Positions 23,340 through 44,100 of a DNA stretch of 64,000 nucleotides are shown piece by piece. The stretch lies in NCBI GenBank assembly GCA_000002435.2, contig CM018791.1. The stretch is one strand, 5' to 3'. The notes under the pieces are model-generated. The model made no database searches. It saw nothing but the letters and a program-made list of their open reading frames with translations, and had not been told where the DNA came from. Source of the stretch: Giardia intestinalis (lineage: Eukaryota). Made by a program: the position numbers and the translations under genes. Within the stretch, counting starts at the first letter, position 1. Every line of letters starts with the position of its first letter.

Positions 23340-25040
23340 ATGAATTTGAAGGCTGCCAAGCAGCTTTTGAAGAATATCCAGGAGAAGGACGCGCTCGATT
23401 CTTGTAACAACTTCCTCGCTGCAAAGACCCAACTAGAGTATACAGAAGCTGCAAAAACCTACAAGGAGTACTTGGCCACAGATTACCGTTCATTGGATAA
23501 GCAAGCAACTGAGTTAATTCTGACCTTAGGAGTTCATGAGCCAGGCAAGGAAGCAGACCTGACTGCTGATCTCGTCTTGAAGGGCCTTGCAAAGCTTTCC
23601 AAGGAAGAGCGTGCCCTTCAAGCTGAGCTGGTATCACTTGTGGGTGGATACAGAACTGCGGCGACAGAACAAAAACTTACGACGCTCCTACAGATCAAGG
23701 ATAGGCCATCTAATATGTTCTATCCGTCTAGAGCCTTGTCTGGGGCTGAGTATCATGCATATGATATGAATCTCCTCAAGGTCTCTTGCGAAGCAGAAGG
23801 TCTCATAGGTCTGATTTTAGACAGCTCTAGCAAGATTACTATGTGTCCAGCAACGCTTAGCAAAGTGCTGTACATCAATTTGAATGATAGGAATGCAGTT
23901 CCACCAAAGATCTCGCCTTCGTCTTATTATTATGCGGCATTTGTGCGTCCATTTGGCGTCTACTTGGCTCGAAAATCAGCAAGCACCAACATTCAAGGCT
24001 TAAAGATGGCTTATTCGGCAGTGAAGAGGGTGTTCAGTACGTGGGTGGATCCCATCAAAAGAACGCTGCTATCGGTTAAGAGTAAGGTTCCTGATCAGCT
24101 GTCTTCTATTCAAGGGGCTATACAATCAGTTGACACATATCTATCTCTTATGGGTACTATTGGGTTGCGTTTTAGCCACTTGAAGACCACGCTTCATGAT
24201 ACTGCGGAGCTACTACAGGTAACAGAACAAGCAGATGAGCAGCTTCGGTACAATTTTGATACTTACTTAGACCGTGCCCTTGAACTGTACGAGCGCAGCA
24301 AAGCGCAAGTCGACTCTGTGAAGAGGGCCTCCAATCAACTTGCTGATGTAGAAAATACGGATCCTGATTCACAGGACACAGAGGCACACGGAGATGCTGT
24401 GATTCTAAAGGTGGCCAAAGATGTTAAAAAAGCCAAGCAGATTGCTCAATTCAAGGCACAAAAAGAAGCTGTACTTGATGCTCAGAATCGTACTGCAAGT
24501 GTGTCTGATAAATTACAGCAGGGAGCTATGCATGACATGGCGTCATACAGAGCTGGGATAATAGAGCTGCGGCAGAAGCTGCTCGAGCAGGAAAAGAAAA
24601 GACAAGCAGAGCTTCTTTTGCAATACGAGCGTGAGGAGAGAAAGCGTAGAGAAGCTGCAGAGGCCGATGCAGCTGCCGTTAGACCGCATGTCGAACGTAG
24701 CAAGGAGCGCGTCCTTGCACCAACAGAGGCTCTTCTGCGCAAACAAGCGGCAAATAGAGCTCGTGCACAGCTTCTGGCCAACGAAGGCGCAAGTAGGCTC
24801 TTTCAAACAGATCTCGCCATAGACGGAGAATTGGTTACAATGGCAGGCAAGAATGGAATTGTCAGGGATAACCAGGAAAATGCGATCTCCACCATAGCTT
24901 CTGAGCTCATGGCGCAGTACGGGATCTTGGGAACGCAGTACGCCCGCGATGCTCTGGCAGAGCTTCGTAGCCAGGAACTTGCTGCTAGGTTCCATCACTA
25001 CAGCATCCGCGATAGCGTTGCGAGTCTCTTTGGCAACTGA
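23340..25040 (+). CDS. Coiled-coil protein (566 aa), function unknown
   Basis: ORF with ATG start. The C-terminal third is highly charged heptad-like sequence (QKLLEQEKKRQAELLLQYEREERKRREAAEADAAA). Confidence 0.6.
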   Translation: MNLKAAKQLLKNIQEKDALDSCNNFLAAKTQLEYTEAAKTYKEYLATDYRSLDKQATELILTLGVHEPGKEADLTADLVLKGLAKLSKEERALQAELVSLVGGYRTAATEQKLTTLLQIKDRPSNMFYPSRALSGAEYHAYDMNLLKVSCEAEGLIGLILDSSSKITMCPATLSKVLYINLNDRNAVPPKISPSSYYYAAFVRPFGVYLARKSASTNIQGLKMAYSAVKRVFSTWVDPIKRTLLSVKSKVPDQLSSIQGAIQSVDTYLSLMGTIGLRFSHLKTTLHDTAELLQVTEQADEQLRYNFDTYLDRALELYERSKAQVDSVKRASNQLADVENTDPDSQDTEAHGDAVILKVAKDVKKAKQIAQFKAQKEAVLDAQNRTASVSDKLQQGAMHDMASYRAGIIELRQKLLEQEKKRQAELLLQYEREERKRREAAEADAAAVRPHVERSKERVLAPTEALLRKQAANRARAQLLANEGASRLFQTDLAIDGELVTMAGKNGIVRDNQENAISTIASELMAQYGILGTQYARDALAELRSQELAARFHHYSIRDSVASLFGN

Positions 25041-25069: not shown

Positions 25070-27616
25070 TTACTGTGTGGTGATTGTGATGGGGTCATGG
25101 AGTTTAATATTCTCGGCCTTTGCATTAACCTCGCTGTTATAGTTGTTGGTGCGCGTCACGGAATCTTCTAACAGCTTCTTGGCCCTTGCACTGCAGTCGT
25201 CGATCTTCTTCATGACTTGGTCGATAGCTGTCGAGAGCTCGTGCATCTTCTCCGTTGTCGTGTTAATGACCAGGTCCATCTTCTCGTACTCATTGACAGG
25301 GGTCTTCTTTACGGAGCGGAACGAGGAGAGGATGTCGGAGTGCTGTGATATGATGGTCTGCTGAACCCCAACATCGTTGAGAAAGACCTCAAGAACTTCG
25401 CACATCTTAGAGACATCGGCAACCATCTCCTTGTACGCTGTCTTCACGCGTTCCTGGGCCCTCACAAGCGCTACTTTGCTATCCTTGGTTTCAGCCTTGT
25501 TGTAAATACTAGCCTCGTCCTCATCCAGGTCTATAAGCGTGCAGTTGTACTTGCCGAGGAGGAGCTCGTATGCTTGGGCTGCTAGACTGTATGCATATGT
25601 CACGAATTTTGGATGTGGCTGTTCAGCTGCATAGGCCTTCAAAAGTAGAGGTAGGGAGGTCGCCTTGCGTGCAAAAGACAGAGACTCGTAATCAACGTTT
25701 CCATTGTCTTCCACGTTATCTTCTGGCAGAAGCACGTCGATCTCAGGAAGGCGCATCTTATAGCCGAGAATCTGCTCGAACTTCCCAGACTCCCCCTCGA
25801 ATTTCTCGGCAGTAAATTCATCCTTGATCTTAACACACGTAAGTCCTATATCCTTGAAGGTCATCTCTAGGTCCTTGCATGACTTGAGAAAGACAACTAG
25901 AATTCCCTGGAAGTCATGCGAATTCCAGTATTTGGATGTGTACTTCTTAGTACGCTCCTGATCTGAGGTCTGAAGTGACGTTGTATTCTGAATTGCTGTT
26001 TTAAGATTTTGGTACGCTAGCGGGAACTTTCCTGTCTGAGCGACGGCCTCTGAAAACTCCTTGTATTTCTGCTTGAACTCCTCCGTGTCCTTTTTAAAAA
26101 CAGTGAGGCGAGAGAGAAGCTTTGCTGCTCTCGGGTTGTCGGTTGAAACGACGGCTTCCTCAATAGGATCCAGGGGGCACGGAAGGTGATTTGCAAAAAC
26201 GTTGTGCACAAGGAAGAAGCACTTTTTGACCTCCTTATTCGTTTCTGCTGCGCATATTGTTGCACAGGTTTTCGCCAAGGCAAGATTCCGCTCTGAGACA
26301 GTGGATCTCTGTTTCTTTTCTGTAGCAATAAGCTCATCTAAGTACTCCGCCAGTTTGGCATATGTCGCTGGAGCATCAGATGGGAGATCCTCATGAATGA
26401 GAGCACGAAACGCGGATCCGAGCTCAGTATTGCCGATCTTTGGCAAATCTCTTCCCACTTTAGAATATGTTTCCAGAACCAGCTTACGCTTCTCAGAAGA
26501 TAGATCAATAAGGGCGTCTGGCATCGCGGGCTTTAGACCAGTGCATGCAGAGCTGATTGCATCCAAGTACTTTGAAATCTGGCTGATCAAATCCTCCAGG
26601 GCGTGCTTCATCCCATACTTCTTGTAAGGGTCTGACAGAGGAGCCTTTTCCAGCTCCCTACAACTAGCTTGGGCCATATCCTTCGCCTCTGTGAACGCGT
26701 CCAGAGCCTCCTTGTACTTGGCATCTGTTCGCATGCAGAGGCCCACATAGTAGTAGGCAAAGGAGTAGTAGTAGGCGCGTTTATACACAACTAGCGCAAT
26801 TACAACCGGCTCAAGCACCTTCTTCAATTCTTTGTGAGCATCCAACAGGTGATCGGCCACCTTGTAGTAATGAACGGCTGCTCGCGATAGAGAACAGATG
26901 GTGGCAAACAGTGCTTGGTTCCCTATGCGTGTAAGCGTTCTCAAGGCATCGGGAATCTTGGCTCTCAATACAGACTCGAAAGCCATTCCAGTGTAGAGGT
27001 TCTCTAGGACCTCGAAGAAGCTGACAGTGTACTCTAGATCCATGAGATTGTGAATGGCCTGAGGAAGACTTCCGATAAACTTGGCTGCACTCTTGAAATA
27101 GTAGGCTGCACGCAAGAAGTGAGAGCGTCGAGACGCACACTGCTCTGTGTACTCGCTTGTAGCATGGTCGGACACCTGCATAGTCACCGCCTGGACCCCG
27201 AGAGTCACCTCATAAGCACCCATGTTGTAAAGAGCATTGAGGACATCCACATGGGCACACGGACCGCCAGAGGCAGACTTCTTCATGCCCACCGTGGACC
27301 AAGTAATAGGCATATTGGTTACCTTCTTGGACAGGGCTGGAGCCGTCCAGGCGACATTCATGGCCGGGATATAGGCCGCTGCATACAGCTCAAAGCAACG
27401 ATCAATAAATCCTCCAGTAGCTGGAGAGAGCCCTCCCGCGGAAAAGAACTTGCGAAGACGTTCTATCTCCGTCACAGAATCTATAATGGCCTGCACGTTG
27501 GATGAGCCCCTCTGCTTTGCGAGATCTAGCAAAGTAGTGTATATGCCGGATTCAGACCCCGTCTGCCGCACGCTTATGGTCGGATAGACGCTGTCAGAAA
27601 AAGCTACACCTAGCAT
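25070..27616 (-). CDS. Hypothetical 848-aa helical protein
   Basis: Long ORF. Tyr-rich helical block VVYKRAYYYSFAYYYVGLCMRTDAKYKEALDAFTEAKD. A BRO1-like fold is conceivable, but I cannot support it from motifs. Confidence 0.55.
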   Translation of the reverse strand: MLGVAFSDSVYPTISVRQTGSESGIYTTLLDLAKQRGSSNVQAIIDSVTEIERLRKFFSAGGLSPATGGFIDRCFELYAAAYIPAMNVAWTAPALSKKVTNMPITWSTVGMKKSASGGPCAHVDVLNALYNMGAYEVTLGVQAVTMQVSDHATSEYTEQCASRRSHFLRAAYYFKSAAKFIGSLPQAIHNLMDLEYTVSFFEVLENLYTGMAFESVLRAKIPDALRTLTRIGNQALFATICSLSRAAVHYYKVADHLLDAHKELKKVLEPVVIALVVYKRAYYYSFAYYYVGLCMRTDAKYKEALDAFTEAKDMAQASCRELEKAPLSDPYKKYGMKHALEDLISQISKYLDAISSACTGLKPAMPDALIDLSSEKRKLVLETYSKVGRDLPKIGNTELGSAFRALIHEDLPSDAPATYAKLAEYLDELIATEKKQRSTVSERNLALAKTCATICAAETNKEVKKCFFLVHNVFANHLPCPLDPIEEAVVSTDNPRAAKLLSRLTVFKKDTEEFKQKYKEFSEAVAQTGKFPLAYQNLKTAIQNTTSLQTSDQERTKKYTSKYWNSHDFQGILVVFLKSCKDLEMTFKDIGLTCVKIKDEFTAEKFEGESGKFEQILGYKMRLPEIDVLLPEDNVEDNGNVDYESLSFARKATSLPLLLKAYAAEQPHPKFVTYAYSLAAQAYELLLGKYNCTLIDLDEDEASIYNKAETKDSKVALVRAQERVKTAYKEMVADVSKMCEVLEVFLNDVGVQQTIISQHSDILSSFRSVKKTPVNEYEKMDLVINTTTEKMHELSTAIDQVMKKIDDCSARAKKLLEDSVTRTNNYNSEVNAKAENIKLHDPITITTQ

Positions 27617-27678: not shown

Positions 27679-28329
27679 CTAGTAGTCCAGACCCCCATCT
27701 TCCCAAGGCTCGTCGTCTAGGATACTCTCATCTGCTAATTGCATCTCCGGACAATTAAACAGCAGGTCCGTAAAATTATCGTCGAGGTCGTCAGGTTTCG
27801 CTTCATCCATGGCCATCATCCACCAGCACGTCCCCACAATGAGTATGACAAGAAGTACGACAGTCCAGATGGTTAAGTTGCGGTTCATTTGCGATGCATG
27901 AGTTAGTCTTGGAAGAACAAATGTGATTGTGTTGTCACTTACACAGGTATTGTCTGGTGGAGACATTGTCTTGACGTAATGAAGAAGGTAATCCGAGCGA
28001 AACCCTCCTACAATACCTATCGTCGAAAATGATCGACACTTGCTCGTTCCTAGATTCTGAACTAAGGAATTTGCTGCGTATGAGCCCAAGTCGAGGAAGC
28101 GCAGGCACGAACTCATCTTGAAGTAGTTTGATCTGTTAACTGTAGAGAGGAGATCGCCATCAGATGGCAGCCCAGCGGCCTCCATAACCGCGTGTGTCAA
28201 GAGAGACCGGTTAAAAACCTGTTCTTGTGCAATGTTAAGGATCTCTGATGGATCGCATATGGATACCTTTGCTTTAGATGCTTCTCCAATAGCGAGGAAG
28301 AGAAAGAGAATACCGAGGGTAGCTGACAT
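27679..28329 (-). CDS. Small type-I membrane protein (signal peptide, luminal domain, one TM, acidic cytosolic tail)
   Basis: N-terminal MSATLGILFLFLAIGEA signal-like segment. C-terminal TM IWTVVLLVILIVGTCWWMMAM followed by an Asp/Glu-rich tail ending DY. The ATG lies 9 nt downstream of the NEK stop. Confidence 0.5.
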   Translation of the reverse strand: MSATLGILFLFLAIGEASKAKVSICDPSEILNIAQEQVFNRSLLTHAVMEAAGLPSDGDLLSTVNRSNYFKMSSCLRFLDLGSYAANSLVQNLGTSKCRSFSTIGIVGGFRSDYLLHYVKTMSPPDNTCVSDNTITFVLPRLTHASQMNRNLTIWTVVLLVILIVGTCWWMMAMDEAKPDDLDDNFTDLLFNCPEMQLADESILDDEPWEDGGLDY

Positions 28330-28338
28330 TTGTATCGT

Positions 28339-30663
28339 TTAATATTTTTTGGGCTTGGGGTTGTCTGTCCCGACAGAGGGCTCGGCCCCAAGGCAAGCGA
28401 TAATTTCATCACGTACTTGAGGGGACGCATACTCCATTTCACGGGCAATATCTACGGCTGTTCGACCCGCCTTAGATGCCAGGGTTCCCTCGTATGGGAC
28501 TAACATTCGTGCAAACTGAACATTTCCGTGTGCTACAGCGTGCATCAAAGATGAGTACCCTGTTTTGTCCAACTGCCCTGTCTCCGCACTGAGGAGCAAT
28601 GCAGCAACTGCACAGGAGTTGACCATTCCAGCGTACATTAACGCTGTGGTCCCAATGGAATCCTTACCACAGAGCTGACCTGCTTGTATGTATCTTTTTG
28701 CAGCGCGAATATCGTTCTTCAATGCAGCAATCATAAGATTGGTAAGCTTTGCTTGGTCTCCCTCATAGTCCATGAGCATGTCAACACAAGCGAGACACCC
28801 CCACTCTGCAGCAAACTGTACCGCACGGCGGCCATCGCTAGCCACCAAGTTACATTCAACTGAAGCAAGAACCTTGACAATCTCCGGGTAATTCCACTGG
28901 GCTGCATACATGAGTGCCGTCAGGCCCTCTTTCGTTTGCTTCCCGCTCAGTTCCTTCTTGAGGATCTGGGCGGCCTTTTCCTGGCCATTCATGGCAGCCA
29001 CCATGAGAGCTGTTTGCCCTGTAGCAGTGCAAATGGCTACTTCTTTGGCTGCGAGGATCCTCATAATATTGCTATGCCCACGCTGAGTCGCAGACATAAG
29101 GGCTGTCCACCCGTTAGCCTTTTGCAAACCAGCCTCATGTTTGAGTAGTAGCTGGACAATCTCACTATGCCCACACTCTGCTGCTATCATTAAAGCAGTG
29201 CTTCCGCTACAAAGCCTCATGCCAGCTTCATATTGTGCTAATAATGACGTACACTTAGAGCTATTGTACTGGGCGGCAAACATCATAGCTGTTCTACCTT
29301 GCCTATTTTGCATACCTGCCTCGAACTCAAGTAACTGCTCGACGACGTTTTCGTTGTCTTGTTGAGCGGCCAGCATAAGAGCCGATGTCCCCTCACTATC
29401 TACTAAGCCTGCCTCATATTCAGCGAGGAGCTCAACGCAATCGCTGAACCCATACCAGGCAGCTACCATTAAGGCGCTGGCTCCTTCAATAGAAATACTT
29501 TGCTTTTTGTCTTTTGTGATAAGCTTTACTGGCGATATGCACTGCATTCCGGCTTCGTTAATGTACCTTGGTATATCATTATATAAGTTCCTTTCTACGG
29601 ACTCTATCAAAGATGTTTTTGACGGGTGCAGAACAGCATCCTTTCTTACACGGGTGGACTGTATTGTAGTTTTAATGCTGTCTTGCTCTCTGGCATCGTT
29701 TGGACAAGGCTCCTCCAAATTTGTATCCACAGAAGAAGCTTTATTGTCAGTCTCTACATCCATTTCTTCCAACCAGTTCTCAGGCTTTTGAGTGTATGGT
29801 TGCTCGGTGGGTGAAGATGCTTCCACTGTCTGGGCAGGGTCATCAGTTAGAAAAGCCGTGTTTCGCTGCACATTAACCACCTGTGGATGACTAAGTATCT
29901 CCTCTGCAGTTGGTCTAGCATTGCTGTCCAGCTGAAGGCATGATCTGATCAGCGTGGCCAGGTCCTCTGAGTAATACGTGGTATCAATTGTGATTTGTGG
30001 GTTGTCCTTGAGGTGTTCAGTACTCCAAGGAATTGGTTTAAGTGTACAGATCTCCAGGATGATGCACCCTAAGGACCAGATGTCTGCAGCAGTTCCGTAA
30101 AAGTCTCCTCGCTGAACCTCTGGGGCCATGTACACAGGGGTCCCCGTGCACGTTGTCATTCGAGACTTGCCGCTTGTTTCTCGGGCAAGCCCAAAGTCTC
30201 CCAGCTTTATGTGTGTGTCAGTAAACAGAATGTTCCCCGGCTTTAGGTCTCTATGAACAATTGTGCTGCTGGTGATGGATTGGCTGTGCATATAAGCCAA
30301 ACCATTGACAATCTGCCCTATCACATACCAAATGTACGGCTCCTGAAAAGGGTACCCCAAATAGCGTTGCGACCGGATGACATCTTCCAAGGACTGGTCG
30401 CAGAGCTCCATCTCCAAAAGATAATAGTATTCATCTTTACGTATAGTTTTGTATTTCAAGATATTTGGATGATCGAGCTTCTGCGCCGTGCTGAATTCCT
30501 GCTCTATCTTGTCGAGGAGATTGTCTGTCAAATAGTATAGATCTATCTCCTTTACTGCCACTAGCTCGCCTGTATCTTTAGAGTATGCCCTGTAGACCTT
30601 CCCAAAGCTGCCGGAATCGATGTATTCGGGGCTGTCATAGTACTCCCCCAAGCTCGTTGACAT
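28339..30663 (-). CDS. NEK-family Ser/Thr protein kinase with C-terminal ankyrin-repeat array
   Basis: The ORF-track start at 30699 is TTG; the first ATG is at 30661-30663 (MSTSLGEYYD). Kinase motifs: GSFGKVY, VAVKEI, HRDLKPGNILF, DFGLARE, GTPVYMAPE. About 10 ankyrin repeats follow (TALMLAAQQDNENVVEQLL etc.). Confidence 0.85.
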   Translation of the reverse strand: MSTSLGEYYDSPEYIDSGSFGKVYRAYSKDTGELVAVKEIDLYYLTDNLLDKIEQEFSTAQKLDHPNILKYKTIRKDEYYYLLEMELCDQSLEDVIRSQRYLGYPFQEPYIWYVIGQIVNGLAYMHSQSITSSTIVHRDLKPGNILFTDTHIKLGDFGLARETSGKSRMTTCTGTPVYMAPEVQRGDFYGTAADIWSLGCIILEICTLKPIPWSTEHLKDNPQITIDTTYYSEDLATLIRSCLQLDSNARPTAEEILSHPQVVNVQRNTAFLTDDPAQTVEASSPTEQPYTQKPENWLEEMDVETDNKASSVDTNLEEPCPNDAREQDSIKTTIQSTRVRKDAVLHPSKTSLIESVERNLYNDIPRYINEAGMQCISPVKLITKDKKQSISIEGASALMVAAWYGFSDCVELLAEYEAGLVDSEGTSALMLAAQQDNENVVEQLLEFEAGMQNRQGRTAMMFAAQYNSSKCTSLLAQYEAGMRLCSGSTALMIAAECGHSEIVQLLLKHEAGLQKANGWTALMSATQRGHSNIMRILAAKEVAICTATGQTALMVAAMNGQEKAAQILKKELSGKQTKEGLTALMYAAQWNYPEIVKVLASVECNLVASDGRRAVQFAAEWGCLACVDMLMDYEGDQAKLTNLMIAALKNDIRAAKRYIQAGQLCGKDSIGTTALMYAGMVNSCAVAALLLSAETGQLDKTGYSSLMHAVAHGNVQFARMLVPYEGTLASKAGRTAVDIAREMEYASPQVRDEIIACLGAEPSVGTDNPKPKKY

Positions 30664-30879
30664 TTTTCTCTGGTCAGAACGAAAAAATCTGCTGAACAAT
30701 CGAGCTATAATTCACTGGATAAAGCACATTACTGTGATGGATGCAACGTAGCAATACTAGATCCATCTTAGCTCATCGCGTGTCCATCATTTCCAACCCT
30801 TAAAGCCGAACCTCTCTTTCTGAGTCTGCGGGGTCGTTAATTGCTGAAAAGTCTTGTATGCAGAAAGACCAGGGGAGAA

Positions 30880-31644
30880 CTAGAGTCCCGTTATGCAGCT
30901 GACTGGGTCAATTGATCCATACTCCATGCGCCGCGCTATACTTTGAATATCTACTAACGCCACACCCTTATCTGTCAAGTAACAGTGTTCAGCAGAAATC
31001 AGATCCAGCTCGGAGATGATGCGTAGATGATCATAGTCATATTGGAGTCGTTCTTGTTGCGTGGGGTAGCGCTTGGTCCTCATGTGCCAATCGGGATTGA
31101 GCACGGCATCTATTCTATCGTGAATGCCCTCTCCCTCCAATAGATGTGGATTGCGTGGACGTCTATTCTGCTTCAGCCGCTCCCGAAGATGCTCACAATA
31201 CGACATAGTGCATCCAGTAGATCTACTTAGCAACCCCTCTTTCCGCTGAGTGGTGGTCGAAGATGGGATGCATGCAATGGACTTAGATAGCGAGAAAGGA
31301 GAAGTGACGCTATCTTCCCTGCCCTTTCTAGTTGGTTGGAGGCCTTGTGACGGCTTGTTTAGTCTTGGTTTAGACGTTGTGAGGTGGATGGGAGCTTCAA
31401 CAGGAACGAATGGGGCTACAAGCCCATGCACAATAGGATTATTATCTCTATTATGCGGATGATCCTCCTGCTGATCAGACAATATCTGCTCAAAAGCATC
31501 TGTGGCTATAGACTTGTGTGCATCTTCACGGGTACAGGACTCATCATCATTATTCGGAGCTTTGCAACATGCGGTGCTATGCAATAGTGCAGGTGATGCA
31601 TTATTCTCCTGCCACGGTGTAGTGTGAAGCTCTCCAGTTTCCAT
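30880..31644 (-). CDS. Hypothetical 254-aa protein
   Basis: ATG at 31642-31644. On the minus strand it is preceded by an A-rich element (CCTAAAAAATTGCAATTTCCTG ATG). Confidence 0.45.
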   Translation of the reverse strand: METGELHTTPWQENNASPALLHSTACCKAPNNDDESCTREDAHKSIATDAFEQILSDQQEDHPHNRDNNPIVHGLVAPFVPVEAPIHLTTSKPRLNKPSQGLQPTRKGREDSVTSPFSLSKSIACIPSSTTTQRKEGLLSRSTGCTMSYCEHLRERLKQNRRPRNPHLLEGEGIHDRIDAVLNPDWHMRTKRYPTQQERLQYDYDHLRIISELDLISAEHCYLTDKGVALVDIQSIARRMEYGSIDPVSCITGL

Positions 31645-32781: not shown

Positions 32782-35700
32782 ATGGAGCCTCAGGAGATTC
32801 TCGGCGCAACTACGTACAGCCAGAACACTGGTAGTGCATCAGACAAGTTCCTGGCCTCAGTCTTCGGGTACTTTTCTGTGGAAGATCCTATTGACGACTT
32901 TCTAAAAGACGTAGAGTGGTTTGCATCGGATTTTGTTGATTGCTTTGTCCTTAAACGCAAGTGCCAGAACTACTGGGACAAGATTGTTACGCAGGCAACG
33001 ATTCCTCAAGTAACACAACCGTTCTTTAAAACTTGTGAGAATGCATCCAATGCCTACACAGTTAAATCGTTGTATTTACGTGACACATTTCTCCTGACTG
33101 ATATCCAGCTACATCTTCAGCGAAAATCGTTTGATTTAGCCTTACTAGATTGTATAAAGATTCAGGTGCGATCTGACATCAAATCCCAGAAACAAGCAAA
33201 ACGTCTCGCGATGTTCCTGTATGTTGCTTGCAAGCTCCTTCTTGTTAACGGATATGTCAACGGCAAGTTTGACGACATTGCAACCAGCCTTTTCAACGGA
33301 GAGATTGCCTCTCTATTGGTCACTGCCTTCAACGCTATCTCTCCTTGGGTAGGGGAGCGCCCATTTATTTTTGAGCCGATTATCTCTCTTCTTGCAGAAG
33401 TATTCCTTTACGCATTTGGGTGTACAAAGAATAGGCACAAGCACGAGAATATCCACAAGATATTTGGCAAGTTATTGAAGAAGGAAGAGGCATCCTCGAC
33501 ATCCTCAGTGTCTATTGTGGACGTATGTCTCAGGGTTATTGTATCTAACAGTGCCAAGAGTTCTATCACTAACATGTCAGAAGCCAGGCGACTCCCCGTT
33601 CAGAATCTTGATATCCGCATGCTGCTTGCGTCCTGCAGGCTCTTGCTCTGCGTCCTCAGCGTGCAGAATAATGATGACGAAACTCGAGTCATAGACTACA
33701 TAGAGCGCAAGATTAGGGAGCTCTGCCCCGTGCAAGGTGCTCACTATCAGGCTCTCCCTCACTTGCTGTCTCTCCTGGTAAATCTTATTGATCAAATTAA
33801 GCCAGACTCGCCGCTTTCTCAAGATGTGATAAGCTTCCTCAAAGAAGCTATCGTAGCACTAATCCTTTGTACTAACTATGATAGGAAGCTAGTGGACCTT
33901 TTCAATGCTGAGTTTTGCACATCCGTTGGTAATATTTCAAAGCTTATTGAGACTCTCTATACCACTGAGATTGGAGGCGCTAAAGCAAAGGACTTCTCTG
34001 CTTTGACGCAGATCTTATTTGATGTTTTGCACGCCTCTGTGTTAGGCAATCCCATTCGGCGACATATGAATAGGACGCTTTTACTGCAGAGCAACTTGCT
34101 ATCCTCCACTAACATTCTAGGATATTTCTGGTGTCAACGATATCACTATACAATTACTATTTATACCGATATCATTATGGACATACAGCGCGACGAGTGT
34201 AAAACCGGTTGTGACTCAAAGAACGGTGCTAAGCAAAATGGTAAGAAGGATAAGAATCTTCTAGCGTTGTCAAATAAGAAGATACAAAGCAAAGTATTGA
34301 AAGATGACTCTATGCAATTAACGATACCGGTGAGCTGGGCGTTTATAGATTGTTTTGTGGAGTATAATGAGCGTGATCAGTTGGAACTTTTACCTCTCAT
34401 CTATTCGTTATGTACTAAAACAAGAGAAATATTGGCAATATATATACCTTCGTATTGTAGGGTTTTTGCTGGTAATAAACAGCTCAGTAGATCGAGGTTG
34501 AGGTACTACAGAAGTAAGTACAACAGTAGTAAGAAATCATTACCTGAATGCTTAGATGATGAGGTAGTAGAACACGACCCTTACTCGAGGCAACTGGGCT
34601 CTTGCTTAGCTTTTGAGCTTCGTGTAGAGCTCCATGATATCCACTATAGCACCTGTGACTTGATCTCTCAAGTGCAGCGTCGCGACTCTTCCGTTGGCTT
34701 GTTTTTCCACTGGTATCATCCATCTGTTGGCCTTCACATTAAAATTGTGAAGTCGCTTCAAGCAAGCTTTGCAACGGCGTACTTCACTGAGTCCGGAGGC
34801 GGCGTAGGTATGCACCGCCTCTTTTGCCTGAGCGAATTCAATAACATACAGCTTCCGAGCTGTTCTTTTACTGGGTACGGATACTCTACCGTGTCATCCC
34901 AGCCATTCTCATATATCGAAGACGTCTTAAAAGAGGTATGTGAAAGGGTATATCGGGACGATTCTTCAGTTGATGTCTCAATTAGGCTAAAGGAACTAGA
35001 GAGTGCAACAAAGACAAATACGGAACTAACGCTGTATAGCCCCACCCCTGATACCCAGTCGAACGTTGCTGTCTTCAAGGACCTTACTTTGCACGTTGAT
35101 GGGAAGAGAATGAGTCACCGTAAAGAGTTCACGCGCAAAACTCTCAGGCCTTCTCAGTTTAAGGCCCTCCTGTATGCTGCGCTCTCTCCTCTGACTCTCA
35201 TCTTGGGGTGCCCTGGAAGTGGGAAGTCGACAACTCTGGCGCACATCTCGAAGATGTTTCTGCTGGAGGAAGGTGCCCAATCCAAGTGGGTTCCTGCCCT
35301 GGATGCTAATGGAGTGGAGCGGAATAGACCAAAGTGGAACCGATTCAAAGACCTCTTCTTTTCCTCGATCAGAACATATGAGAGTGTCACTGAAATGGTG
35401 CTAGCCGAGGATGTTGGCGTCCAGCTTTTTATCACCGCACACAGCAACAATGCCGCCGACCAGTTGACACGCTACATCCTCGAGATGGATGGGTGGGACA
35501 AGACGACTCTCCCCTTCATAGTTAGATTGGGGAGTCAGTCGCTTGACTCTAATGTTCTTAAGTTCATGCCCATATACTATCTCTATCGGATTGCTCTGGA
35601 GCTGGACGTGCGACTTGATTCATCATATGATGAGGAAGACAAGTTGAGAACAGGAGATTTGATCGTTCATTTTACATCTATCTCCGAGGCAATACAATGC

Positions 35701-37197
35701 CATATATTGGGGTCTAATTCGTCAAAGGTATATGCAAGATTAACAAGATCTCAGAGAGATGTCCTGTATTGTATTCTGAAAGATATGAATTTCTTCAATC
35801 ATAAGCTCTTGAGCTCGGCGACCATCATTGTCAGCACCACCTCTGGATTTAGCATATATCTGCGCTATTTCACTGACGTGGCCACCGATGGCCTTGAAGA
35901 TTCCCTTCCTTTTGATCCCTTAAAGGGTAGCTCGAAGGTCTATGATGGATATGGCAGATCAATGTACAACCAACTTTCTTGCTTCAGTGGCGGGTCCCAT
36001 ATATTGCGAACGAATAGTTACAGCGACGTCCTGGTCGACTATGACCACACTCCCTCTAATCACACCTCCTACCATTCTAACTTGGTGAAAAGTACTACTG
36101 CATTTAACACAGGCGAAGGGGGCCACCACAGGTACCTGATTGTCGAAGAGGCGGCGCGCCTTTCAGAGCACGAGTTTGCGTCCTTCTTGGTCGCCCCTTT
36201 CGACAAGATCATTCTACTCGGGGATATCCTCCAGCTCCCGCCCCTCATCCAGGATCTGACCATCGCGAGCTCCGGGGCCCTCGACTGGTCTGTCTTCCAC
36301 CGCATTTGCTACTCTCCGCGGGTCAGCGTGCCGATTGTGGCCTTGGAGGAACAGGCACGAAGCGTTCCAGAGATTGCTGACCTCTACCGCTCTTTGTATG
36401 AATCGTCTCTACCTAGATATTGCTCAATAAAGGGTGGCCTGCGAGACATCCCTGGAGTCAAATTCGATAGCTTTGTGGACCAAGCGATCCTGGAAAGGTT
36501 CCATGGGAGGTGCTTCTGTATTCCGAGCAAGAGCATATCTACATATGCTAATTTGATTACTGAGACAGACAGAGCGCTAACCGACTTCTGTCAGCAAATG
36601 AAAGAGTATCAAATTATCAAGAAGCAACCTGAAGACGCGAAGTCAAAGAAAAAAAGAGGCGGAGACATCAGATTGGCAGAGACTAACAGGGACGAGATTA
36701 AGCTGATCTCCTATCTTCTTTATAGTACTCTTGTGCAGGTCACGAACATGATTTTCTCTGGGTCTCACTTGGATAAGCTTGCGTATGACTCGCGAGAGCA
36801 AGAGTATTATCTCCATTTTAGCATTGCTATATTGTCGCTCTATAGTGCACAGGCCGCCCTGCTAAAATCGGACCGATTTATTTCGGATGTCACTAGTGTA
36901 TTTAAGGACCTCAGGCTACCTGCAGGCAATGATAGGAGGGTACGTTTGAGTGTTGACATATCCGTTTCCACGAGTGACGCGTTCCAGGGTCTAGAGGCAG
37001 ACGTCGTGTTTCTCTCAATGGTAAAGCGCACTACTACTGATTTCATCGATAGTCTTCCACGCGCGCTTGTTGCAGTCAGCAGAGCGCGACGACTGGTCGT
37101 CTGTGTTGGAATGGCAGATAAGTCTAAAAATGAGATCTGGATGAATGTGGCCAAGCAGCAGGAGTTGGATTTTTCAAATCTGCTCAGTGAAGCGTAA
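32782..37197 (+). CDS. Superfamily-1 Upf1-like (Sen1/senataxin-like?) RNA/DNA helicase with ~800-aa N-terminal non-helicase region
   Basis: The ORF-track start at 32755 is not ATG; the first ATG is at 32782 (MEPQEIL). Helicase motifs: I GCPGSGKST, II IVEEAA (variant of DEAAQ), III LLGDILQLPP, V DAFQGLEADVVFLSMVKR, VI RALVAVSRARRLVVCVG. Confidence 0.8.
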   Translation: MEPQEILGATTYSQNTGSASDKFLASVFGYFSVEDPIDDFLKDVEWFASDFVDCFVLKRKCQNYWDKIVTQATIPQVTQPFFKTCENASNAYTVKSLYLRDTFLLTDIQLHLQRKSFDLALLDCIKIQVRSDIKSQKQAKRLAMFLYVACKLLLVNGYVNGKFDDIATSLFNGEIASLLVTAFNAISPWVGERPFIFEPIISLLAEVFLYAFGCTKNRHKHENIHKIFGKLLKKEEASSTSSVSIVDVCLRVIVSNSAKSSITNMSEARRLPVQNLDIRMLLASCRLLLCVLSVQNNDDETRVIDYIERKIRELCPVQGAHYQALPHLLSLLVNLIDQIKPDSPLSQDVISFLKEAIVALILCTNYDRKLVDLFNAEFCTSVGNISKLIETLYTTEIGGAKAKDFSALTQILFDVLHASVLGNPIRRHMNRTLLLQSNLLSSTNILGYFWCQRYHYTITIYTDIIMDIQRDECKTGCDSKNGAKQNGKKDKNLLALSNKKIQSKVLKDDSMQLTIPVSWAFIDCFVEYNERDQLELLPLIYSLCTKTREILAIYIPSYCRVFAGNKQLSRSRLRYYRSKYNSSKKSLPECLDDEVVEHDPYSRQLGSCLAFELRVELHDIHYSTCDLISQVQRRDSSVGLFFHWYHPSVGLHIKIVKSLQASFATAYFTESGGGVGMHRLFCLSEFNNIQLPSCSFTGYGYSTVSSQPFSYIEDVLKEVCERVYRDDSSVDVSIRLKELESATKTNTELTLYSPTPDTQSNVAVFKDLTLHVDGKRMSHRKEFTRKTLRPSQFKALLYAALSPLTLILGCPGSGKSTTLAHISKMFLLEEGAQSKWVPALDANGVERNRPKWNRFKDLFFSSIRTYESVTEMVLAEDVGVQLFITAHSNNAADQLTRYILEMDGWDKTTLPFIVRLGSQSLDSNVLKFMPIYYLYRIALELDVRLDSSYDEEDKLRTGDLIVHFTSISEAIQCHILGSNSSKVYARLTRSQRDVLYCILKDMNFFNHKLLSSATIIVSTTSGFSIYLRYFTDVATDGLEDSLPFDPLKGSSKVYDGYGRSMYNQLSCFSGGSHILRTNSYSDVLVDYDHTPSNHTSYHSNLVKSTTAFNTGEGGHHRYLIVEEAARLSEHEFASFLVAPFDKIILLGDILQLPPLIQDLTIASSGALDWSVFHRICYSPRVSVPIVALEEQARSVPEIADLYRSLYESSLPRYCSIKGGLRDIPGVKFDSFVDQAILERFHGRCFCIPSKSISTYANLITETDRALTDFCQQMKEYQIIKKQPEDAKSKKKRGGDIRLAETNRDEIKLISYLLYSTLVQVTNMIFSGSHLDKLAYDSREQEYYLHFSIAILSLYSAQAALLKSDRFISDVTSVFKDLRLPAGNDRRVRLSVDISVSTSDAFQGLEADVVFLSMVKRTTTDFIDSLPRALVAVSRARRLVVCVGMADKSKNEIWMNVAKQQELDFSNLLSEA

Positions 37198-37458: not shown

Positions 37459-40400
37459 TCATTCTAGGAGAGCCACAAGTTCTGGGTGCCCAGCCTTCAC
37501 AGCAACATCAGCAGGCGTGCATCCAGCGCCGTACTTACTCTTCTCTGTTGTAGTTATTGTCTTTTCTTTTGGATACTTGCGCAGGATGTACTCTATGCAG
37601 GGCTTACTTCCCACCTGGATGGCGTACATTAGAGCGTTCATTCCTTCCTTGGTCTTTGCCCCTACTTCCTTGATCAAGGCCTCCACACATGGTCGATGTC
37701 CTTGGCTCGCCGCGTGCATTAGAGCAGTCATCTTGTGCTTGTCTGTCATGCCTCGCTCAAACTCGAGGAGATACTTGCAGCAATCGTGGTGCCCGTGCAT
37801 TCCGGCAAGCATCATCGCAGTGGTGCCGGAGGGTGTGGCCATCTTTGCTTCAGCCTTTAGATACTGAAGAACCTTTACCTTTCCAGCGCTGGCTGCGTAC
37901 ATGAGGGCCGTCTTTCCTTCCTCATCCGCGAGGGTGGCCTGAGAGGGTGCATAGAGATACACACTAACCACATCGCCCTGCTCAGCAGCATCCATGAGCT
38001 CCGTCTTACGCCCTCCACTGACGTTTGGGGGTTGAATTTCAAAGCCTTCAGGTCCCAAAAGAAGTGACGCCGCCTCTGTGTTTCCATTCAAAAGAGCGAT
38101 CTTTGTTGCAGTATTGTCTATGAAGTCCTTGTCGTCTAGAACCCTGATTCCGGCCTCATATGGAAGCAGAATCTTTATCAATTCAATATTATTTCCACCT
38201 GCAGCCATCATAAGAGCGGTGTAGCCGTCGTTGTTTTCATGTCCGGCTTGCTTTTTGATGTCCTTCTTGACCTCCTCGAAGAGCTTTGTGAGCTTAGCCT
38301 GCTCTTCATCAGTAAGCTGATGGGCACGAGAACTCATAGATCTCCCGTCATCTCCTACTTTGTACGGATCCAACTTCAGGATCTTCTTTATGGCCCTCAT
38401 AACAGTGCTGTTGCCGTTTTCGTCTAGCTTTAAGTTGGTTGGCTTGACAATTTCTCGAGATTTAGTATTCGCAGATTCAGCAGCTTCTCTTGTCGCTAGA
38501 GGGGTATGTGTTTTTGGAGCATCCACAGTGCTAGGGGCATCGTGGTGGTCGTGCTCTCCTACAGATTCCTTAGCTGCTATAGCATTGTCCTTATGAGCCT
38601 CATCTGTAGTTGCATCTTCACTGTGATGGTGCACATTACTCTTAGGGGTCTGCGGTGTTACCTCTTCTTCCTTGAGTGGCTTTATCTGAATAGGGGTGTG
38701 CTGATTAGATTCCAAAGGAGACTCTGCGACTGAAGCAAGCCTGTCGATGGTGTCGTGAAAGTCAGCAGATGGTGGCAGTAACAGATCTGTCTGAACAGCA
38801 GAGTCCGAACAATATGCCGCTGCTTCTACCTCCACGTCAGCGGTTTCTGGCGGAGGAGCGGCTAGTGGCGCAAGATCACTCAGAGACGGCAGAACAATAC
38901 CTGAGGTAAGCGAGTCTTTGCGAAGAAGTCTGTTCGCTTCGCGAACCAAAGCAGAATCAGCACTCTTGACATCCTCTAGCATGGCGGAATGTGTAGACCA
39001 GATTTTATTACATAAGTCAGCAACATGAGAAAGGCCCTCGATGGACTTTTGCTGTGCTTCAGTTGTGTTAGTGACCCACTGAGCTGCATTGCCAGTAATA
39101 GAGATGGCCTTTAAAATTTGATACAGGATGTCGTAAACTTGAGAGCTTCTGGTGAGCATAACGTCTGCCACTGTGTCCAACTTCGATTGCAGATCGATTG
39201 CTTGGGATCGGTATTTATCACACGAAGAGAGGAGCTCAGTGTACTGAAAAGAGTCTGCTGCATCAGCTGGTAGTCGTGGCTTGGATGAGGTTTCGGCTGC
39301 ACCTGCAGTCGTTGGAGTCTCGAGAAACTTATTTATCAGACGCTCCTTTCCTTCAATACACTCCAGCATCTCAACGCATGCAACGCGAAGCTCAGTGGCG
39401 GACATCTTACTGATCTTCTTCAATGTGGACGCAGTGTCTATGTTCGCTGTGGGACTGAGCGGCAGACCTATAACACTCGTTGATCGACCCACTGCACTGG
39501 CCTCCGCTGCACCTGATCTTTGAATGGTGCCCAGCTCATTCTGGTAAGAGTCCATGATCACTGGCGGTATCAGGTTGTCATCTTGATAGGTCTCTTCTGG
39601 TATGAGATCCATCCTGGCCTGATGCATTGTGCACGACTGAAGCTCTGTTCCTGGAACTGTGCTGACATGACTCGCCGGGTCTGAGGTCAATGCATCGGAC
39701 CGGGGACCAGTGATCTGGGTCTCTGCGGTGTCGTGTTCCGGAGAGAGTAGATATGTTGGCCGTGGGATAATGCGATTTGACTGGGCGCGCGGCTTGATGT
39801 GTTTCAAATTCTCAGGGTTCTGGTGCATTAAAATCACTCCGTCCTCGTCGTCCCTATCGTGCATTCCCATCTTAGTCATTCTGTGAATAATTTGCATTTC
39901 GGTGTCATTGTGGCTGGATGGAATACCTGATTTGCCGGCTGCAGAGTCGTTAGCAGTAGCGTTGTTAGTTACCCCATATGCAGAACGAACGCTTTTATTG
40001 CGCATAGCCAGGTTCCGTCGAAATATCTCACCCAAGTCGGAGAGCGGGGGGATCACCGATCCTATTGGTGGGTCGTTCAACGCCATTTTGTTAGCGGCCT
40101 TAAGCGTAGATGTAGCCCGGCCAAAGGACTGGGGCGACTTTTCCACAGGGAGCGCAGGGCTACCCTTTTTGGGTGCCCCGCTGGTAGAGTTAGGACTTTC
40201 GACCTTTCCCAGCTTATCGGTGTGCTGCGAAGGCGACACGTTACTAAAGCGGTTGACAGACGTCGTGTATTGCTTTGCCCCCGGAGAAGTAAAGGGGGAC
40301 TTGGAGCTAGTGGCAGCCAAGGTGGCCCTGTCTCCCAGAGTCTTCACTTTGTGCAGAAGGTGTGCCGTGAGTTTTGTGTGAAGCTGCACGTGGCCGCACT

Positions 40401-40899
40401 CCTCAGCTATCTTCACTGCGCGCTCCAGGTCGGGGACGGAGAACTTCTCACTCTTCGTCAGTAGGTCCACGCAAAGGTGGTAATTATTGTAGGTGGCGTA
40501 GTCAAGGGCTGTGTAGCCTTGCTTGTCGGTTTCGTTCCCGAAGTATGGAATCAGCAGAGGGATGACCCGCGTGCTTCCGTTGGCCGCGGCAATTATGAGG
40601 GGCGTGTAGCCGGTGGAAGACTGGCGAAGCTCCCGCTCCTTCGGGATGAGGACGGAGGCGATGTCGTCGTAGTTCCGCGCGCACGCCAGGAAGAGGGCCG
40701 TTTCGTCGCGGTTGTTCACGAAGCCGGACTCTGTCTCGCTGAGGACCTCGACCATCGTCAGGTCGTTGTTCTTGACGGCGAGCATCAGGGCCGTGCACCC
40801 GTCGTCGTTCCGCGTGCCCGCATACTTGCGCTGGACGGCGCGGACCCCGTTGTAGTTGTGCTGCTCGACAAGCGAGAACCACGCGCGGACGTCCCCCAT
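37459..40899 (-). CDS. Ankyrin-repeat protein of the Giardia 'protein 21.1' type (N- and C-terminal ankyrin arrays around a long low-complexity middle)
   Basis: Starts MGDVRAWFSLVEQHNYNGVRAVQRKYAGTRNDDGCTALMLAV, then ankyrin repeats. A ~600-aa Ser/Thr/Pro-rich region follows, then more ankyrin repeats (GYTALMMAAGGNNIELIKILL...). Confidence 0.85.
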   Translation of the reverse strand: MGDVRAWFSLVEQHNYNGVRAVQRKYAGTRNDDGCTALMLAVKNNDLTMVEVLSETESGFVNNRDETALFLACARNYDDIASVLIPKERELRQSSTGYTPLIIAAANGSTRVIPLLIPYFGNETDKQGYTALDYATYNNYHLCVDLLTKSEKFSVPDLERAVKIAEECGHVQLHTKLTAHLLHKVKTLGDRATLAATSSKSPFTSPGAKQYTTSVNRFSNVSPSQHTDKLGKVESPNSTSGAPKKGSPALPVEKSPQSFGRATSTLKAANKMALNDPPIGSVIPPLSDLGEIFRRNLAMRNKSVRSAYGVTNNATANDSAAGKSGIPSSHNDTEMQIIHRMTKMGMHDRDDEDGVILMHQNPENLKHIKPRAQSNRIIPRPTYLLSPEHDTAETQITGPRSDALTSDPASHVSTVPGTELQSCTMHQARMDLIPEETYQDDNLIPPVIMDSYQNELGTIQRSGAAEASAVGRSTSVIGLPLSPTANIDTASTLKKISKMSATELRVACVEMLECIEGKERLINKFLETPTTAGAAETSSKPRLPADAADSFQYTELLSSCDKYRSQAIDLQSKLDTVADVMLTRSSQVYDILYQILKAISITGNAAQWVTNTTEAQQKSIEGLSHVADLCNKIWSTHSAMLEDVKSADSALVREANRLLRKDSLTSGIVLPSLSDLAPLAAPPPETADVEVEAAAYCSDSAVQTDLLLPPSADFHDTIDRLASVAESPLESNQHTPIQIKPLKEEEVTPQTPKSNVHHHSEDATTDEAHKDNAIAAKESVGEHDHHDAPSTVDAPKTHTPLATREAAESANTKSREIVKPTNLKLDENGNSTVMRAIKKILKLDPYKVGDDGRSMSSRAHQLTDEEQAKLTKLFEEVKKDIKKQAGHENNDGYTALMMAAGGNNIELIKILLPYEAGIRVLDDKDFIDNTATKIALLNGNTEAASLLLGPEGFEIQPPNVSGGRKTELMDAAEQGDVVSVYLYAPSQATLADEEGKTALMYAASAGKVKVLQYLKAEAKMATPSGTTAMMLAGMHGHHDCCKYLLEFERGMTDKHKMTALMHAASQGHRPCVEALIKEVGAKTKEGMNALMYAIQVGSKPCIEYILRKYPKEKTITTTEKSKYGAGCTPADVAVKAGHPELVALLE

Positions 40900-41182: not shown

Positions 41183-44100
41183 TTATTCACTCCGAGCACG
41201 GGCAATCCCGGCGAGCTCCTCTGCGTCCTCGCACTCTGCGACCAGCTTGCTGAAGAGCGACTCTGGGTTGCTCAGGAGCGCCCTGGGGGTGTCGAACTCC
41301 TTTACCTCGCCCGCGTCCATAACTATGATTCTGTCGAAGTCGATGATGGTATTGATCCTGTGTGCAATGGCGATAACGACGCGGTCTGCCAGCGCTGTAC
41401 GGATCGTGGACTGGATTATGGCGTCGTTTTCCCGGTCGACCTGGGCGGTGGCCTCATCCAGAATAACCACTGGTGCGTTTCGTAGCAGCGCACGGGCCAC
41501 GCAGACAAGCTGGCGCTGACCTGCAGAGAGGTTGTCCCCGCAGGAAGTGATAGGGGCCTCTAGGCCTTCTAATTGGCTTTCAAAGAAGTCACGCAAACAG
41601 ACCTTTTCCAAAGCCGACCATAACTCCATGTCAGTGTGCCGTCGCACAGTCTTTGGAATCTCACCAACAGGAATTTTCTCTGCCAGCATATGAGAGTACG
41701 GGCAAAGCGATGACCTGAGAGTGCCCTCGAAGACGAAGGGATCCTGTGGGATTATTGTCAAGAAGCTTCTTGCGTCCTTGAGGGGAAGCCTATCTATCGG
41801 ATATCCGTCGATAGAGATGAGGGGTTTGTCGTACTGCCGTGATGGCGGAGAGTCTGTCTCGGCTCGCTCCGGCTCTGCCAGCCGGAAGAGAGCAGCCACT
41901 AGGGATGACTTTCCGGCACCTGTGCGCCCAACAATTCCAATTCTCTCGCCTTTCCGAAACGCAAGGTTCACGTTTATCAGTGTGCAGGGGAGCTCTTTAC
42001 GATGCCTAAAGGACATGCGGCTGATCTGTACATACTCGCCCTCACTAGGCCTCGCTCTACTACCTTCTACATCCTGAGCGGGCGCATCTGCTTCTTCTGG
42101 AGACAGCTTACTATACTCATGCACTCTCTCGAAGCTTGCAAAGCTCCGTTCGAAGAGTATGCTGTATATTAGCACAGAGTTAAGAAGCTCAATGACTTCA
42201 AAGCCATTAAGGAGTACTACGCCAACATAGCGTGCAACATCACCATACGCTGCAATAATGATCACCCCGATGCTGAGCGCAAGGGAGAGCAGGACCGAAA
42301 TGCACGAGTAGTTGAAGGATGCCCATCTATTACAGCAGTACATCATCCACTCAACAGCATACTTGCGTGAAAGGTTCTTCCTGTGAATATTCTGGATGTC
42401 TGCTTGCATCCCACTCGCTCTGACCAAGGGAAGATTGCTAGAGACCTCCTCCACAAGCGTGATGACGGGGCTGGTGACCATGTTACTTAGCCGCTTCACT
42501 TGCGGCGTGATCATCCTGTACCGCCTCAGAAGCAAGATGAATATTATCCCAACTGGCAAAAAGGCGAAGATTGTTGGCCACGCAAAAATCATCGACGTGA
42601 GACTCGACACGCTCACTGAGATGAGCAATTCGCAGAGAGGAGTCATCGTGTCGTAGACGTCTCTATCGCACTCGCGCACGTCTGATGACAATCTATTAAG
42701 GATACGACCCATCGGATTGGTTTCAAAGAAGGACATGCGTGTATGGAGTATTGCGTTCGCCATGCTCTTGTGCGCCTTTGTTGTAGCAGAAATAGAGAAG
42801 TTTATAGTTAGATATCTCATTACTATAATCATGCCAATCAACAGCACCAGTGCCGCTGTGTATAGAAGGGGGTAGAAGTGGCTCGGCATCCCGTAGCGGT
42901 TTGTTGACCATGAATCGATAAAGACGTTCATGAATTGTTGAATCAACTGCGTAATGATATACAACACCAGACAAAGGACGAACTTCCCTATGCCTCCATA
43001 CTTAATCCAGCTGATATAGAGCTCCTTAGAAAGGGCTCCCTTTCCAGAGTGCTGTTCGTCCACAATATTCTTAGTTTTATTGGCCTCGTCGGTATTTGTA
43101 GGTGGATCCACTGAGGACGCCTCTGTACAAATATCGTTCTGACTAGACGCTGCTAGAGATAGCTTGCTGGGGACAGAAATTATGTTCCTCTTCAGAAGGT
43201 CATCCTTCCTCCTTTCGACCGGCTTCTTATCCTGGATCTCGTATACTCTGTCGCAGCTCCCAAAGAATTGTGTCTGATGGCTTGATATGAGAACGGTCTT
43301 CTGCTTCTGCCTTATCAGATATCCCAAGATGCAGTTTTCCCAGAGACGCCGCGCAACGTGGGCGTCAACCGCAGAGAGGGGATCATCGAGAAGGTAGATA
43401 TCGGAATCGGCATAAACGGCGCGGGCTAACGCTATACGGGCCTTTTGCCCACCTGAAAGAGAGGTACCGCGCTCTCCCACCTCTGTGTTAATTCCACTAG
43501 GAAGCACAGCCAAGTCCTTGTCGAGACAGCAGAGGCTTATAACCTTGGCTAGCTTCTGCTCATCCAGGGGCTTGTGAAATATTATATTGCTGATAATAGT
43601 CCCAGACATAACGCAGGGAACCTGAGAATAATAGGCCACAGTTCCTCCGTGGGATATTTTGTCTGTAGATGTTAGCTCTCCGAGTAATGCCATGTGCAAG
43701 GCCGTCTTCCCAGAGCCTACTGCTCCGAATATGCCAACTAGTTCCCCTTTCCTGACAGAAAAGTCTACTCCGTCAAGAACGGGAGAGCTATCTATTGCTT
43801 TCTGCACCTCATACTTACGCAGTGTCTCCGGATCGATAAATTTATATGTCGTTGCCAGTTGCACATATATCCTCTTAAGTTTATTAACAAGGCTTTCGTC
43901 ATTTGTTGATAGGTAGTCTCCTTCAATTATGTTTGCAGGAATTTCTATTTTCGAGGGCAGTGCTATCCGCAGCTGAAGCGCAAAGTGATCAGCTGTTTCT
44001 CCTTGGTGTGTCGGTCTGTGCATCAGATCGACTATCTGTTGAGGAGTGAAGCTACAGAGCAAGGACTCTTTGGCTTCAGACCCCAGAAGGCTCAGGGTTT

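Follow-up and report, generated by a model that had tools for sequence, protein, structure and literature searches.

A probable RNA helicase of the Aquarius/ZNFX1 branch with a Glu-Glu Walker B motif in Giardia intestinalis and its fornicate relatives

Aquarius (AQR, IBP160, or EMB-4) and ZNFX1 (ZNFX-1, or Hrr1 in Schizosaccharomyces pombe) are the closest known relatives of the helicase gene considered here, which lies on the + strand of a 64,000-nucleotide stretch of Giardia intestinalis DNA (contig CM018791.1 of GenBank assembly GCA_000002435.2; the window). Aquarius forms the intron-binding complex with SYF1/XAB2, ISY1, CCDC16, and PPIE; its ATPase activity is needed for the human spliceosome to undergo catalytic activation, and its K829A mutant is dominant-negative (PMC10208982). 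ZNFX1 hydrolyzes ATP under RNA stimulation, using a Walker B motif that the authors of its cryo-EM preprint describe as a “deviant EE1007AA” and in which E1007 is catalytic (10.1101/2025.10.14.682297). A supplementary table of Vosseberg et al. (2023) gives ZNFX1 as the paralogue sister to AQR in the last common ancestor of eukaryotes (LECA; PMC9887622).

The Giardia gene encodes a protein of 1,471 residues that exactly matches the G. intestinalis WB entries KAE8303228.1 and XP_037901874.1, labeled solely “AAA domain-containing protein.” A literature search returned nothing for these accessions, nor for Giardia together with Aquarius or ZNFX1. The comparisons described below indicate that the gene product is very probably a catalytically intact RNA helicase or translocase of superfamily 1B (SF1B; Upf1-like) belonging to the Aquarius/ZNFX1 branch. 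Though divergent, it is an ordinary addition to an already known clade of helicases.

A Upf1-like core with two glutamates at motif II

An earlier reading of the window, made from the sequence alone, had proposed that the open reading frame (ORF) at 32782-37197 encodes a Upf1-like SF1 helicase, and both the ORF and all of the motifs that it quoted are present. The Pfam profiles AAA_11 (aa 791-1022, E 1.6e-10, 41.7 bits, cut-off 27) and AAA_12 (aa 1168-1445, E 2e-14, 54 bits, cut-off 27) match above threshold, and a profile search and a tree of the core, described below, likewise place the protein in Upf1-like SF1B, so that the proposal stands. The motif and Pfam match to a Upf1-like helicase is far beyond chance. 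In an alignment of Giardia proteins, motifs I, Ia, II, III, V, and VI are invariant at essentially every residue, and an AlphaFold2 (AF2) model of aa 480-1471 (mean predicted local distance difference test [pLDDT] score 70, predicted template modeling score 0.65) has the two-RecA fold of a Upf1-like core together with a 1B barrel, with RecA1 beginning near aa 789. The protein ends 28 aa past motif VI, without zinc fingers.

Motif II carries two adjacent glutamates, E1122 and E1123. The sequence-only reading had found the VEEAA motif correctly but placed it one base off, at nt 36141-36155 instead of 36142-36156. Both glutamates are invariant in the five Giardia orthologues that we recovered (84, 74, 63, 58, and 45% identity), and Glu-Glu (EE) stands at motif II in every fornicate homologue found, other diplomonads included; the Asp-Glu (DE) pair, which that reading had said would point to a sequencing error, was not seen in orthologues. 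Because the orthologues are invariant and the ORF is under purifying selection (see below), a sequencing error at this position is ruled out.

To place this motif, we used an exhaustive HMMER search in which a profile of aa 300-1471 was run against 1.84 billion cluster representatives, giving 4,785 matches. We tallied motif II in the 148 matches listed after the first two Giardia orthologues; it was readable in 135, of which ~125 had EE and ~10 had DE. True Aquarius proteins among the matches, recognized by the Pfam domains Aquarius_N_1st, 2nd, and 3rd, read EEA[AG]Q...GDHHQLPP, and ZNFX1-type proteins, recognized by the ZNFX1 and RZ domains, read EEAAE...GDHxQLRP. Opposite the Giardia IVEEAARL, alignments to Protein Data Bank (PDB) entries show IVEEAAEV in human ZNFX1 and VMEEAAQI in Caenorhabditis elegans Aquarius. 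Since ZNFX1 and Aquarius are both active ATPases with EE, this pair is a clade trait compatible with catalysis. We concluded that, across the sequences compared, Glu-Glu is the normal Walker B throughout the Aquarius/ZNFX1 branch rather than a peculiar substitution, and that Glu-Glu-Ala-Ala is the ancestral Walker B of that branch. In a Upf1-like helicase, EE is thus a marker of the Aquarius/ZNFX1 clade and not of lost activity, and it offers a quick aid to sorting.

The Giardia protein is probably competent for catalysis. In the mechanism that we propose, K815 of Walker A and E1122/E1123 would bind Mg-ATP, with E1123 acting as the catalytic base by analogy with E1007 of ZNFX1, and the arginines of motif VI would sense the γ-phosphate. 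RecA1 and RecA2 would clamp single-stranded RNA in a groove gated by the barrel and by the insertion between motifs Ia and II. If ZNFX1, Aquarius, and Upf1 are a guide, RNA would stimulate ATP hydrolysis, and translocation along single-stranded RNA would remodel a ribonucleoprotein. The N-terminal solenoid would provide a platform for docking and recruiting partners or for dimerization, like the armadillo (ARM) domains of Aquarius and ZNFX1. The pathway served may be the spliceosome, the surveillance of R-loops or nascent RNA, or small-RNA silencing.

A family that spans Fornicata

The HMMER matches came in this order: fornicate homologues first (E 1e-224 to 1e-22), followed by ZNFX1-like proteins and true Aquarius (E ~1e-19 to 1e-12). 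The fornicate members comprise P0015 (1,395 aa, E 1e-224), P0017 (1,346 aa, E 5e-94), Kipferlia bialata GIQ81712.1 (1,353 aa), three paralogues in Hexamita inflata (968-991 aa), and Spironucleus salmonicida EST47630.1 (793 aa). All of them have EEAAR at motif II (EEASR in one fragment) and GD.(L/M)QLPP at motif III. With homologues in Giardia, Spironucleus, Hexamita, and Kipferlia, the family therefore spans Fornicata, and the gene in the window is its Giardia representative. Kipferlia is free-living and intron-rich; diplomonads are intron-poor.

We built a neighbor-joining tree of the core (a distance method only; 473 trimmed columns, 52 taxa, 200 bootstraps), in which the fornicate, Aquarius, and ZNFX1 proteins each formed a clade with 100% bootstrap support. 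These three clades together made up an EE clade with 97% support, in agreement with the sister-paralogue listing of Vosseberg et al., and the DE-type helicases fell outside it. Among the latter are the canonical Upf1-like SF1B helicases Upf1, IGHMBP2, and Sen1. The best PDB matches by sequence were human ZNFX1 (9q9z) and then Aquarius (8ro0_Q, 9l5r_Y, 4pj3), all of which have EEAA at motif II.

The sequence-only reading had likened the N-terminal arrangement to that of Sen1/senataxin or Aquarius. The Aquarius-like layout holds, but the Sen1 N-terminal domain is not found by Pfam; the CH domain of Upf1 is also not present, and Sen1 is a weaker match to the Giardia protein than Aquarius, ZNFX1, or Upf1. 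A protein of the Sen1/senataxin type was rejected because there is no SEN1_N match in Pfam and motif II is EE, not DE.

Aquarius, ZNFX1, or a third lineage

As to which member of the EE clade the fornicate family descends from, we tentatively favor a highly diverged Aquarius, with a confidence that falls a little short of an even chance. In a Foldseek search with the model of aa 480-1471, ranks 1-13 were all Aquarius (E 2e-21 to 8e-19), with ZNFX1 at 1.2e-18 and Upf1 at 5e-18, and the longest structural alignments were those to Aquarius. In hhalign comparisons of the core, 430 contiguous columns covering the whole core aligned to Aquarius, versus 273 columns, in the second half only, to ZNFX1. 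The Giardia protein has the QLPP of motif III and the HSN of motif Ia in common with Aquarius, the spacing of motifs V and VI is equal in the two, and both lack zinc fingers. As predicted, the parts also follow the order seen in Aquarius (a helical-repeat region, a beta-barrel, RecA1 carrying an insertion, and RecA2), in proteins of a common length of ~1,400-1,500 aa, with Walker A at aa 809 here versus ~805-830 in Aquarius. On sequence and model together, the Foldseek ranks, the hhalign span, QLPP, HSN, the motif V-VI spacing, the order of the parts, and the lack of zinc fingers lean to Aquarius.

Several observations weigh against this descent. The lead of Aquarius over ZNFX1 in Foldseek is only ~3 orders of magnitude, and the hidden Markov model (HMM) of the ZNFX1 core scored slightly higher than that of the Aquarius core (149 versus 126 bits). 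At 11 discriminating columns, the Giardia protein has the Aquarius state in 3, the ZNFX1 state in 5 (mostly also the outgroup state), and neither in 3. The Giardia protein is missing insertions that are specific to Aquarius, such as one between motifs II and III, and its motif II ends in R where that of Aquarius ends in Q; in turn it has its own insertion of ~50 aa between motifs I and Ia, which Aquarius lacks. The neighbor-joining tree did not choose a sister group, with bootstrap values of 36% for the fornicates with AQR (not significant), 24% for the fornicates with ZNFX1, and 39% for AQR with ZNFX1. Furthermore, the catalogue of Giardia splicing proteins in Table 9 of Korneta et al. (2012) has neither Aquarius nor its partners in the intron-binding complex (PMC3424538).

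The N-terminal half adds to the points against Aquarius. Pfam found nothing significant in aa 1-790, and neither Aquarius_N_1st, 2nd, and 3rd, including the N-terminal ARM domain of Aquarius (PF16399), nor the ZNFX1 domain nor SEN1_N matched at E <= 1; the Aquarius_N domains, which Aquarius itself has, and the ZNFX1 domain (PF25396) had no Pfam match in the other fornicate members either. Comparisons by hhalign of the whole N-terminus and of the pre-core region by itself (local, greedy, and global modes) gave no signal with Aquarius or ZNFX1, and the hhalign probability of the N-terminus against the Aquarius ARM domain was 0.1. The AF2 model of aa 1-780, built from six close sequences, is of low confidence overall (pLDDT 55), with aa 110-410 at 70-90, and its Foldseek matches were generic ARM/HEAT proteins only, at E of at least 0.015. 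The Aquarius beta-barrel and insert domains (PF21143, PF21144) likewise found no match by Pfam or hhalign, although the AF2 model of aa 480-1471 has a barrel (pLDDT 75-85) in a position equivalent to that of the Aquarius beta-barrel or Upf1 domain 1B. On these Pfam (E <= 1) and hhalign results, homology of aa 1-790 with Aquarius or ZNFX1 at the sequence level was rejected. The length of this region varies within the family, with Walker A at residue 364 (Spironucleus), 534-558 (Hexamita), or 735-813 (Giardia, P0017, and Kipferlia), a pattern that fits a scaffold for docking better than it fits a catalytic domain.

Because the bootstrap values, HMM scores, discriminating columns, and indels give mixed signals, we place the protein with confidence in the Aquarius/ZNFX1 EE clade and name the member by estimate only. 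The narrower proposal, a cryptic Aquarius of Giardia and the other fornicates with an N-terminal half diverged beyond recognition by sequence, is possible, but we consider it doubtful. We looked for a canonical Aquarius in fornicates by naming the best Aquarius-like matches and, separately, by searching with the most similar Aquarius protein, P0034; neither gave a fornicate protein among the matches listed (the best 120), which is not evidence of absence. Candidates for the Aquarius that the Giardia catalogue of splicing factors lacks were, among the matches listed, confined to the gene described here and its Spironucleus, Hexamita, and Kipferlia relatives. If the family is Aquarius, it would offer a minimal system for the function of this helicase without its usual partners. 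A cryptic Aquarius would mean that the only SF1 helicase of the spliceosome has been kept in organisms that have a dozen or so introns and in which its partners in the intron-binding complex are not detectable, and would suggest a role beyond bulk splicing, for example in the surveillance of R-loops or nascent RNA, in small-RNA silencing in the nucleus, or in the trans-splicing of split Giardia genes.

A rather unlikely alternative to descent from Aquarius is a ZNFX1/Hrr1-type helicase minus the C-terminal NFX1 and RZ zinc fingers, which would act not in splicing but in small-RNA silencing with RNA-dependent RNA polymerase, Dicer, and Argonaute, all of which Giardia has. ZNFX1 was the best PDB match both by sequence (E 1.7e-8) and by profile (E 1.2e-16), and the higher score of its core HMM and the five agreeing columns point the same way. 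Both proteins have an N-terminal helical domain (of armadillo type in ZNFX1), a 1B barrel, and, between motifs Ia and II, a large insertion, as well as the EE Walker B, whose second Glu is the catalytic one in ZNFX1. The ZNFX1 preprint also reports that the 1C insertion of ZNFX1 has its closest homologue by sequence in S. pombe HRR1, an RNA interference (RNAi) helicase (10.1101/2025.10.14.682297). However, Pfam found no zf-NFX1, RZ, or ZNFX1-domain match in the Giardia protein, which stops 28 aa beyond motif VI; motif III is QLPP instead of QLRP, and the distance from Walker A to motif II is ~190-310 aa in fornicates versus ~300-470 aa in ZNFX1-type proteins, with a shorter 1C-type insertion in the Giardia protein. 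The eight-helix ARM domain described for ZNFX1 in the same preprint compares with a much longer N-terminal region in Giardia. Moreover, the hhalign alignment to ZNFX1 spans half the core, most of the ZNFX1-like states are also outgroup states, and the tree gives the pairing of fornicates with ZNFX1 the lowest of the three bootstrap values. If the gene is nonetheless ZNFX1/Hrr1-like, it becomes a candidate for a missing component of the RNAi and antigenic-variation machinery of Giardia.

It is also unlikely, in our estimate, that the family is a third EE-type lineage, either an old paralogue kept only in Fornicata or one diverged past meaningful assignment, with a lineage-specific function. This would fit the trichotomy of three fully supported clades, the lack in the fornicate family of the derived residues and indels of Aquarius or ZNFX1, and the signatures peculiar to it (EEAAR, GD.LQLPPL, and an insertion that separates motif I from motif Ia). 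It would also fit the N-terminal region, for which no homologue was detectable outside Fornicata with the HMMER profile of aa 300-1471 or with hhalign. Against it, every other eukaryote would have to have lost this paralogue, and the listing of Vosseberg et al. gives AQR no sister paralogue in LECA other than ZNFX1. The proteins of fornicates evolve notoriously fast, and long branches can erase synapomorphies. Finally, although position 1122 is Glu where the textbook motif is DExx and the ZNFX1 authors themselves chose the word “deviant” for EEAA, it is highly improbable that a lineage-specific Asp-to-Glu change has altered or abolished ATP handling, making this a regulatory pseudo-helicase as the sequence-only reading had suggested, or that the Glu is an error, given that EE is invariant in all orthologues and fornicate homologues, is the majority state in the ~125 nearest representatives among the matches listed, and belongs to two characterized proteins that hydrolyze ATP, and that all other catalytic motifs are intact and invariant.

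The gene and its setting

We computed the ratio of nonsynonymous to synonymous substitution rates (dN/dS) against two syntenic orthologues, one close and one distant, and obtained 0.30 and 0.13, respectively, for the whole helicase ORF. By segment, the ratios were 0.10-0.27 over the first 480 aa, 0.16-0.25 over aa 481-785, and 0.13-0.34 over the core, showing that the entire ORF is under purifying selection, the uncharacterized N-terminal half included. Both of these orthologues lie in the same neighborhood as the gene in the window, with a NEK-type kinase/ankyrin gene on one side and an ankyrin-repeat gene on the other. From dN/dS, synteny, and the invariance among orthologues, we therefore take the whole ORF, including its N-terminal half, to be functional coding sequence. 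Coordinates of the gene, its parts, and its neighbors are given in Table 1.

Table 1. Features of the helicase gene and its surroundings in the window
Feature	Residues (aa)	Position (nt)	Strand	Remarks
Complete coding sequence	1471 + stop	32782..37197	+	ATG at 32782, stop at 37195-37197, uninterrupted
Alpha-helical repeat (solenoid) region	~1-470	32782..34191	+	No Pfam family; ~20 helices predicted by AF2
Pre-core module: beta-barrel (aa ~500-565), helices, small beta domain before RecA1	~500-785	34279..35136	+	Predicted by AF2
Motif I / Walker A, GCPGSGKST (K815)	809-817	35206..35232	+	Invariant in Giardia orthologues save C/S at 810
Insertion of ~50 aa between motifs I and Ia	829-881	35266..35424	+	Invariant NRPKWN and SVTEM blocks
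Motif Ia, TAHSNNAADQL	885-895	35434..35466	+	Invariant in Giardia; aligns with Aquarius tHSN.aLn
Ser/Tyr/Asn-rich low-complexity insertion	~1028-1118	35863..36135	+	Directly upstream of motif II; pLDDT < 40
Motif II / Walker B, LIVEEAAR (E1122, E1123)	1119-1126	36136..36159	+	VEEAA at 36142-36156
Motif III, GDILQLPP	1147-1154	36220..36243	+	QLPP ending common with Aquarius; QLRP in ZNFX1 type
Motif V, STSDAFQGLEADVVFLS	1396-1412	36967..37017	+	From sequence, PDB alignments, and Giardia alignment
Motif VI, RALVAVSRARRLVVCVG	1427-1443	37060..37110	+	Arginine finger region; from sequence and Giardia alignment
ORF	1360	19241-23320	+	No Pfam match at E <= 1e-5
ORF	566	23340-25037	+	No Pfam match at E <= 1e-5
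BRO1-domain protein		25073-27616	-	Neighboring gene
ORF	216	27682-28329	-	No Pfam match at E <= 1e-5
NEK-type kinase with ankyrin repeats		28342-30699	-	Flank syntenic in two other Giardia lineages
ORF	254	30883-31644	-	No Pfam match at E <= 1e-5
Ankyrin-repeat protein	1146	37462-40899	-	Flank syntenic in two other Giardia lineages
ABC transporter		41186-45712	-	Neighboring gene

The two insertions in the core differ in their conservation. The one between motifs I and Ia is strongly kept among Giardia species, faces a gap in the Aquarius core profile, and has low pLDDT in the AF2 model. The Ser/Tyr/Asn-rich one lies inside the 1C/pointer-type insertion of RecA1; it is poorly conserved, varies among assemblages, and is missing in the non-Giardia fornicate members and in P0005 (GSB_152074), from the assemblage B isolate GS.

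P0005 is itself a mosaic relative to P0003, an assemblage-B-like orthologue, with 92-98% identity at alignment columns 201-300, 801-950, and 1101-1250 and 21-45% between them; WB and P0003 are 40-98% identical along the whole alignment. This pattern suggests either that a second, divergent copy has undergone partial gene conversion or that the assembly or the gene model is chimeric. The dS between WB and the orthologue of 84% identity (L001 3001-7422) is uneven along the gene (core, 0.21; N-terminus, 0.26; aa 481-785, 0.63), and recombination between lineages may be the cause.

The neighbors of the helicase gene are typical Giardia genes. Two antisense ORFs of 104-106 aa lie within the helicase coding sequence, at 34758-35078 (-) and 36840-37154 (-), and are most likely spurious because the sense frame is under purifying selection.

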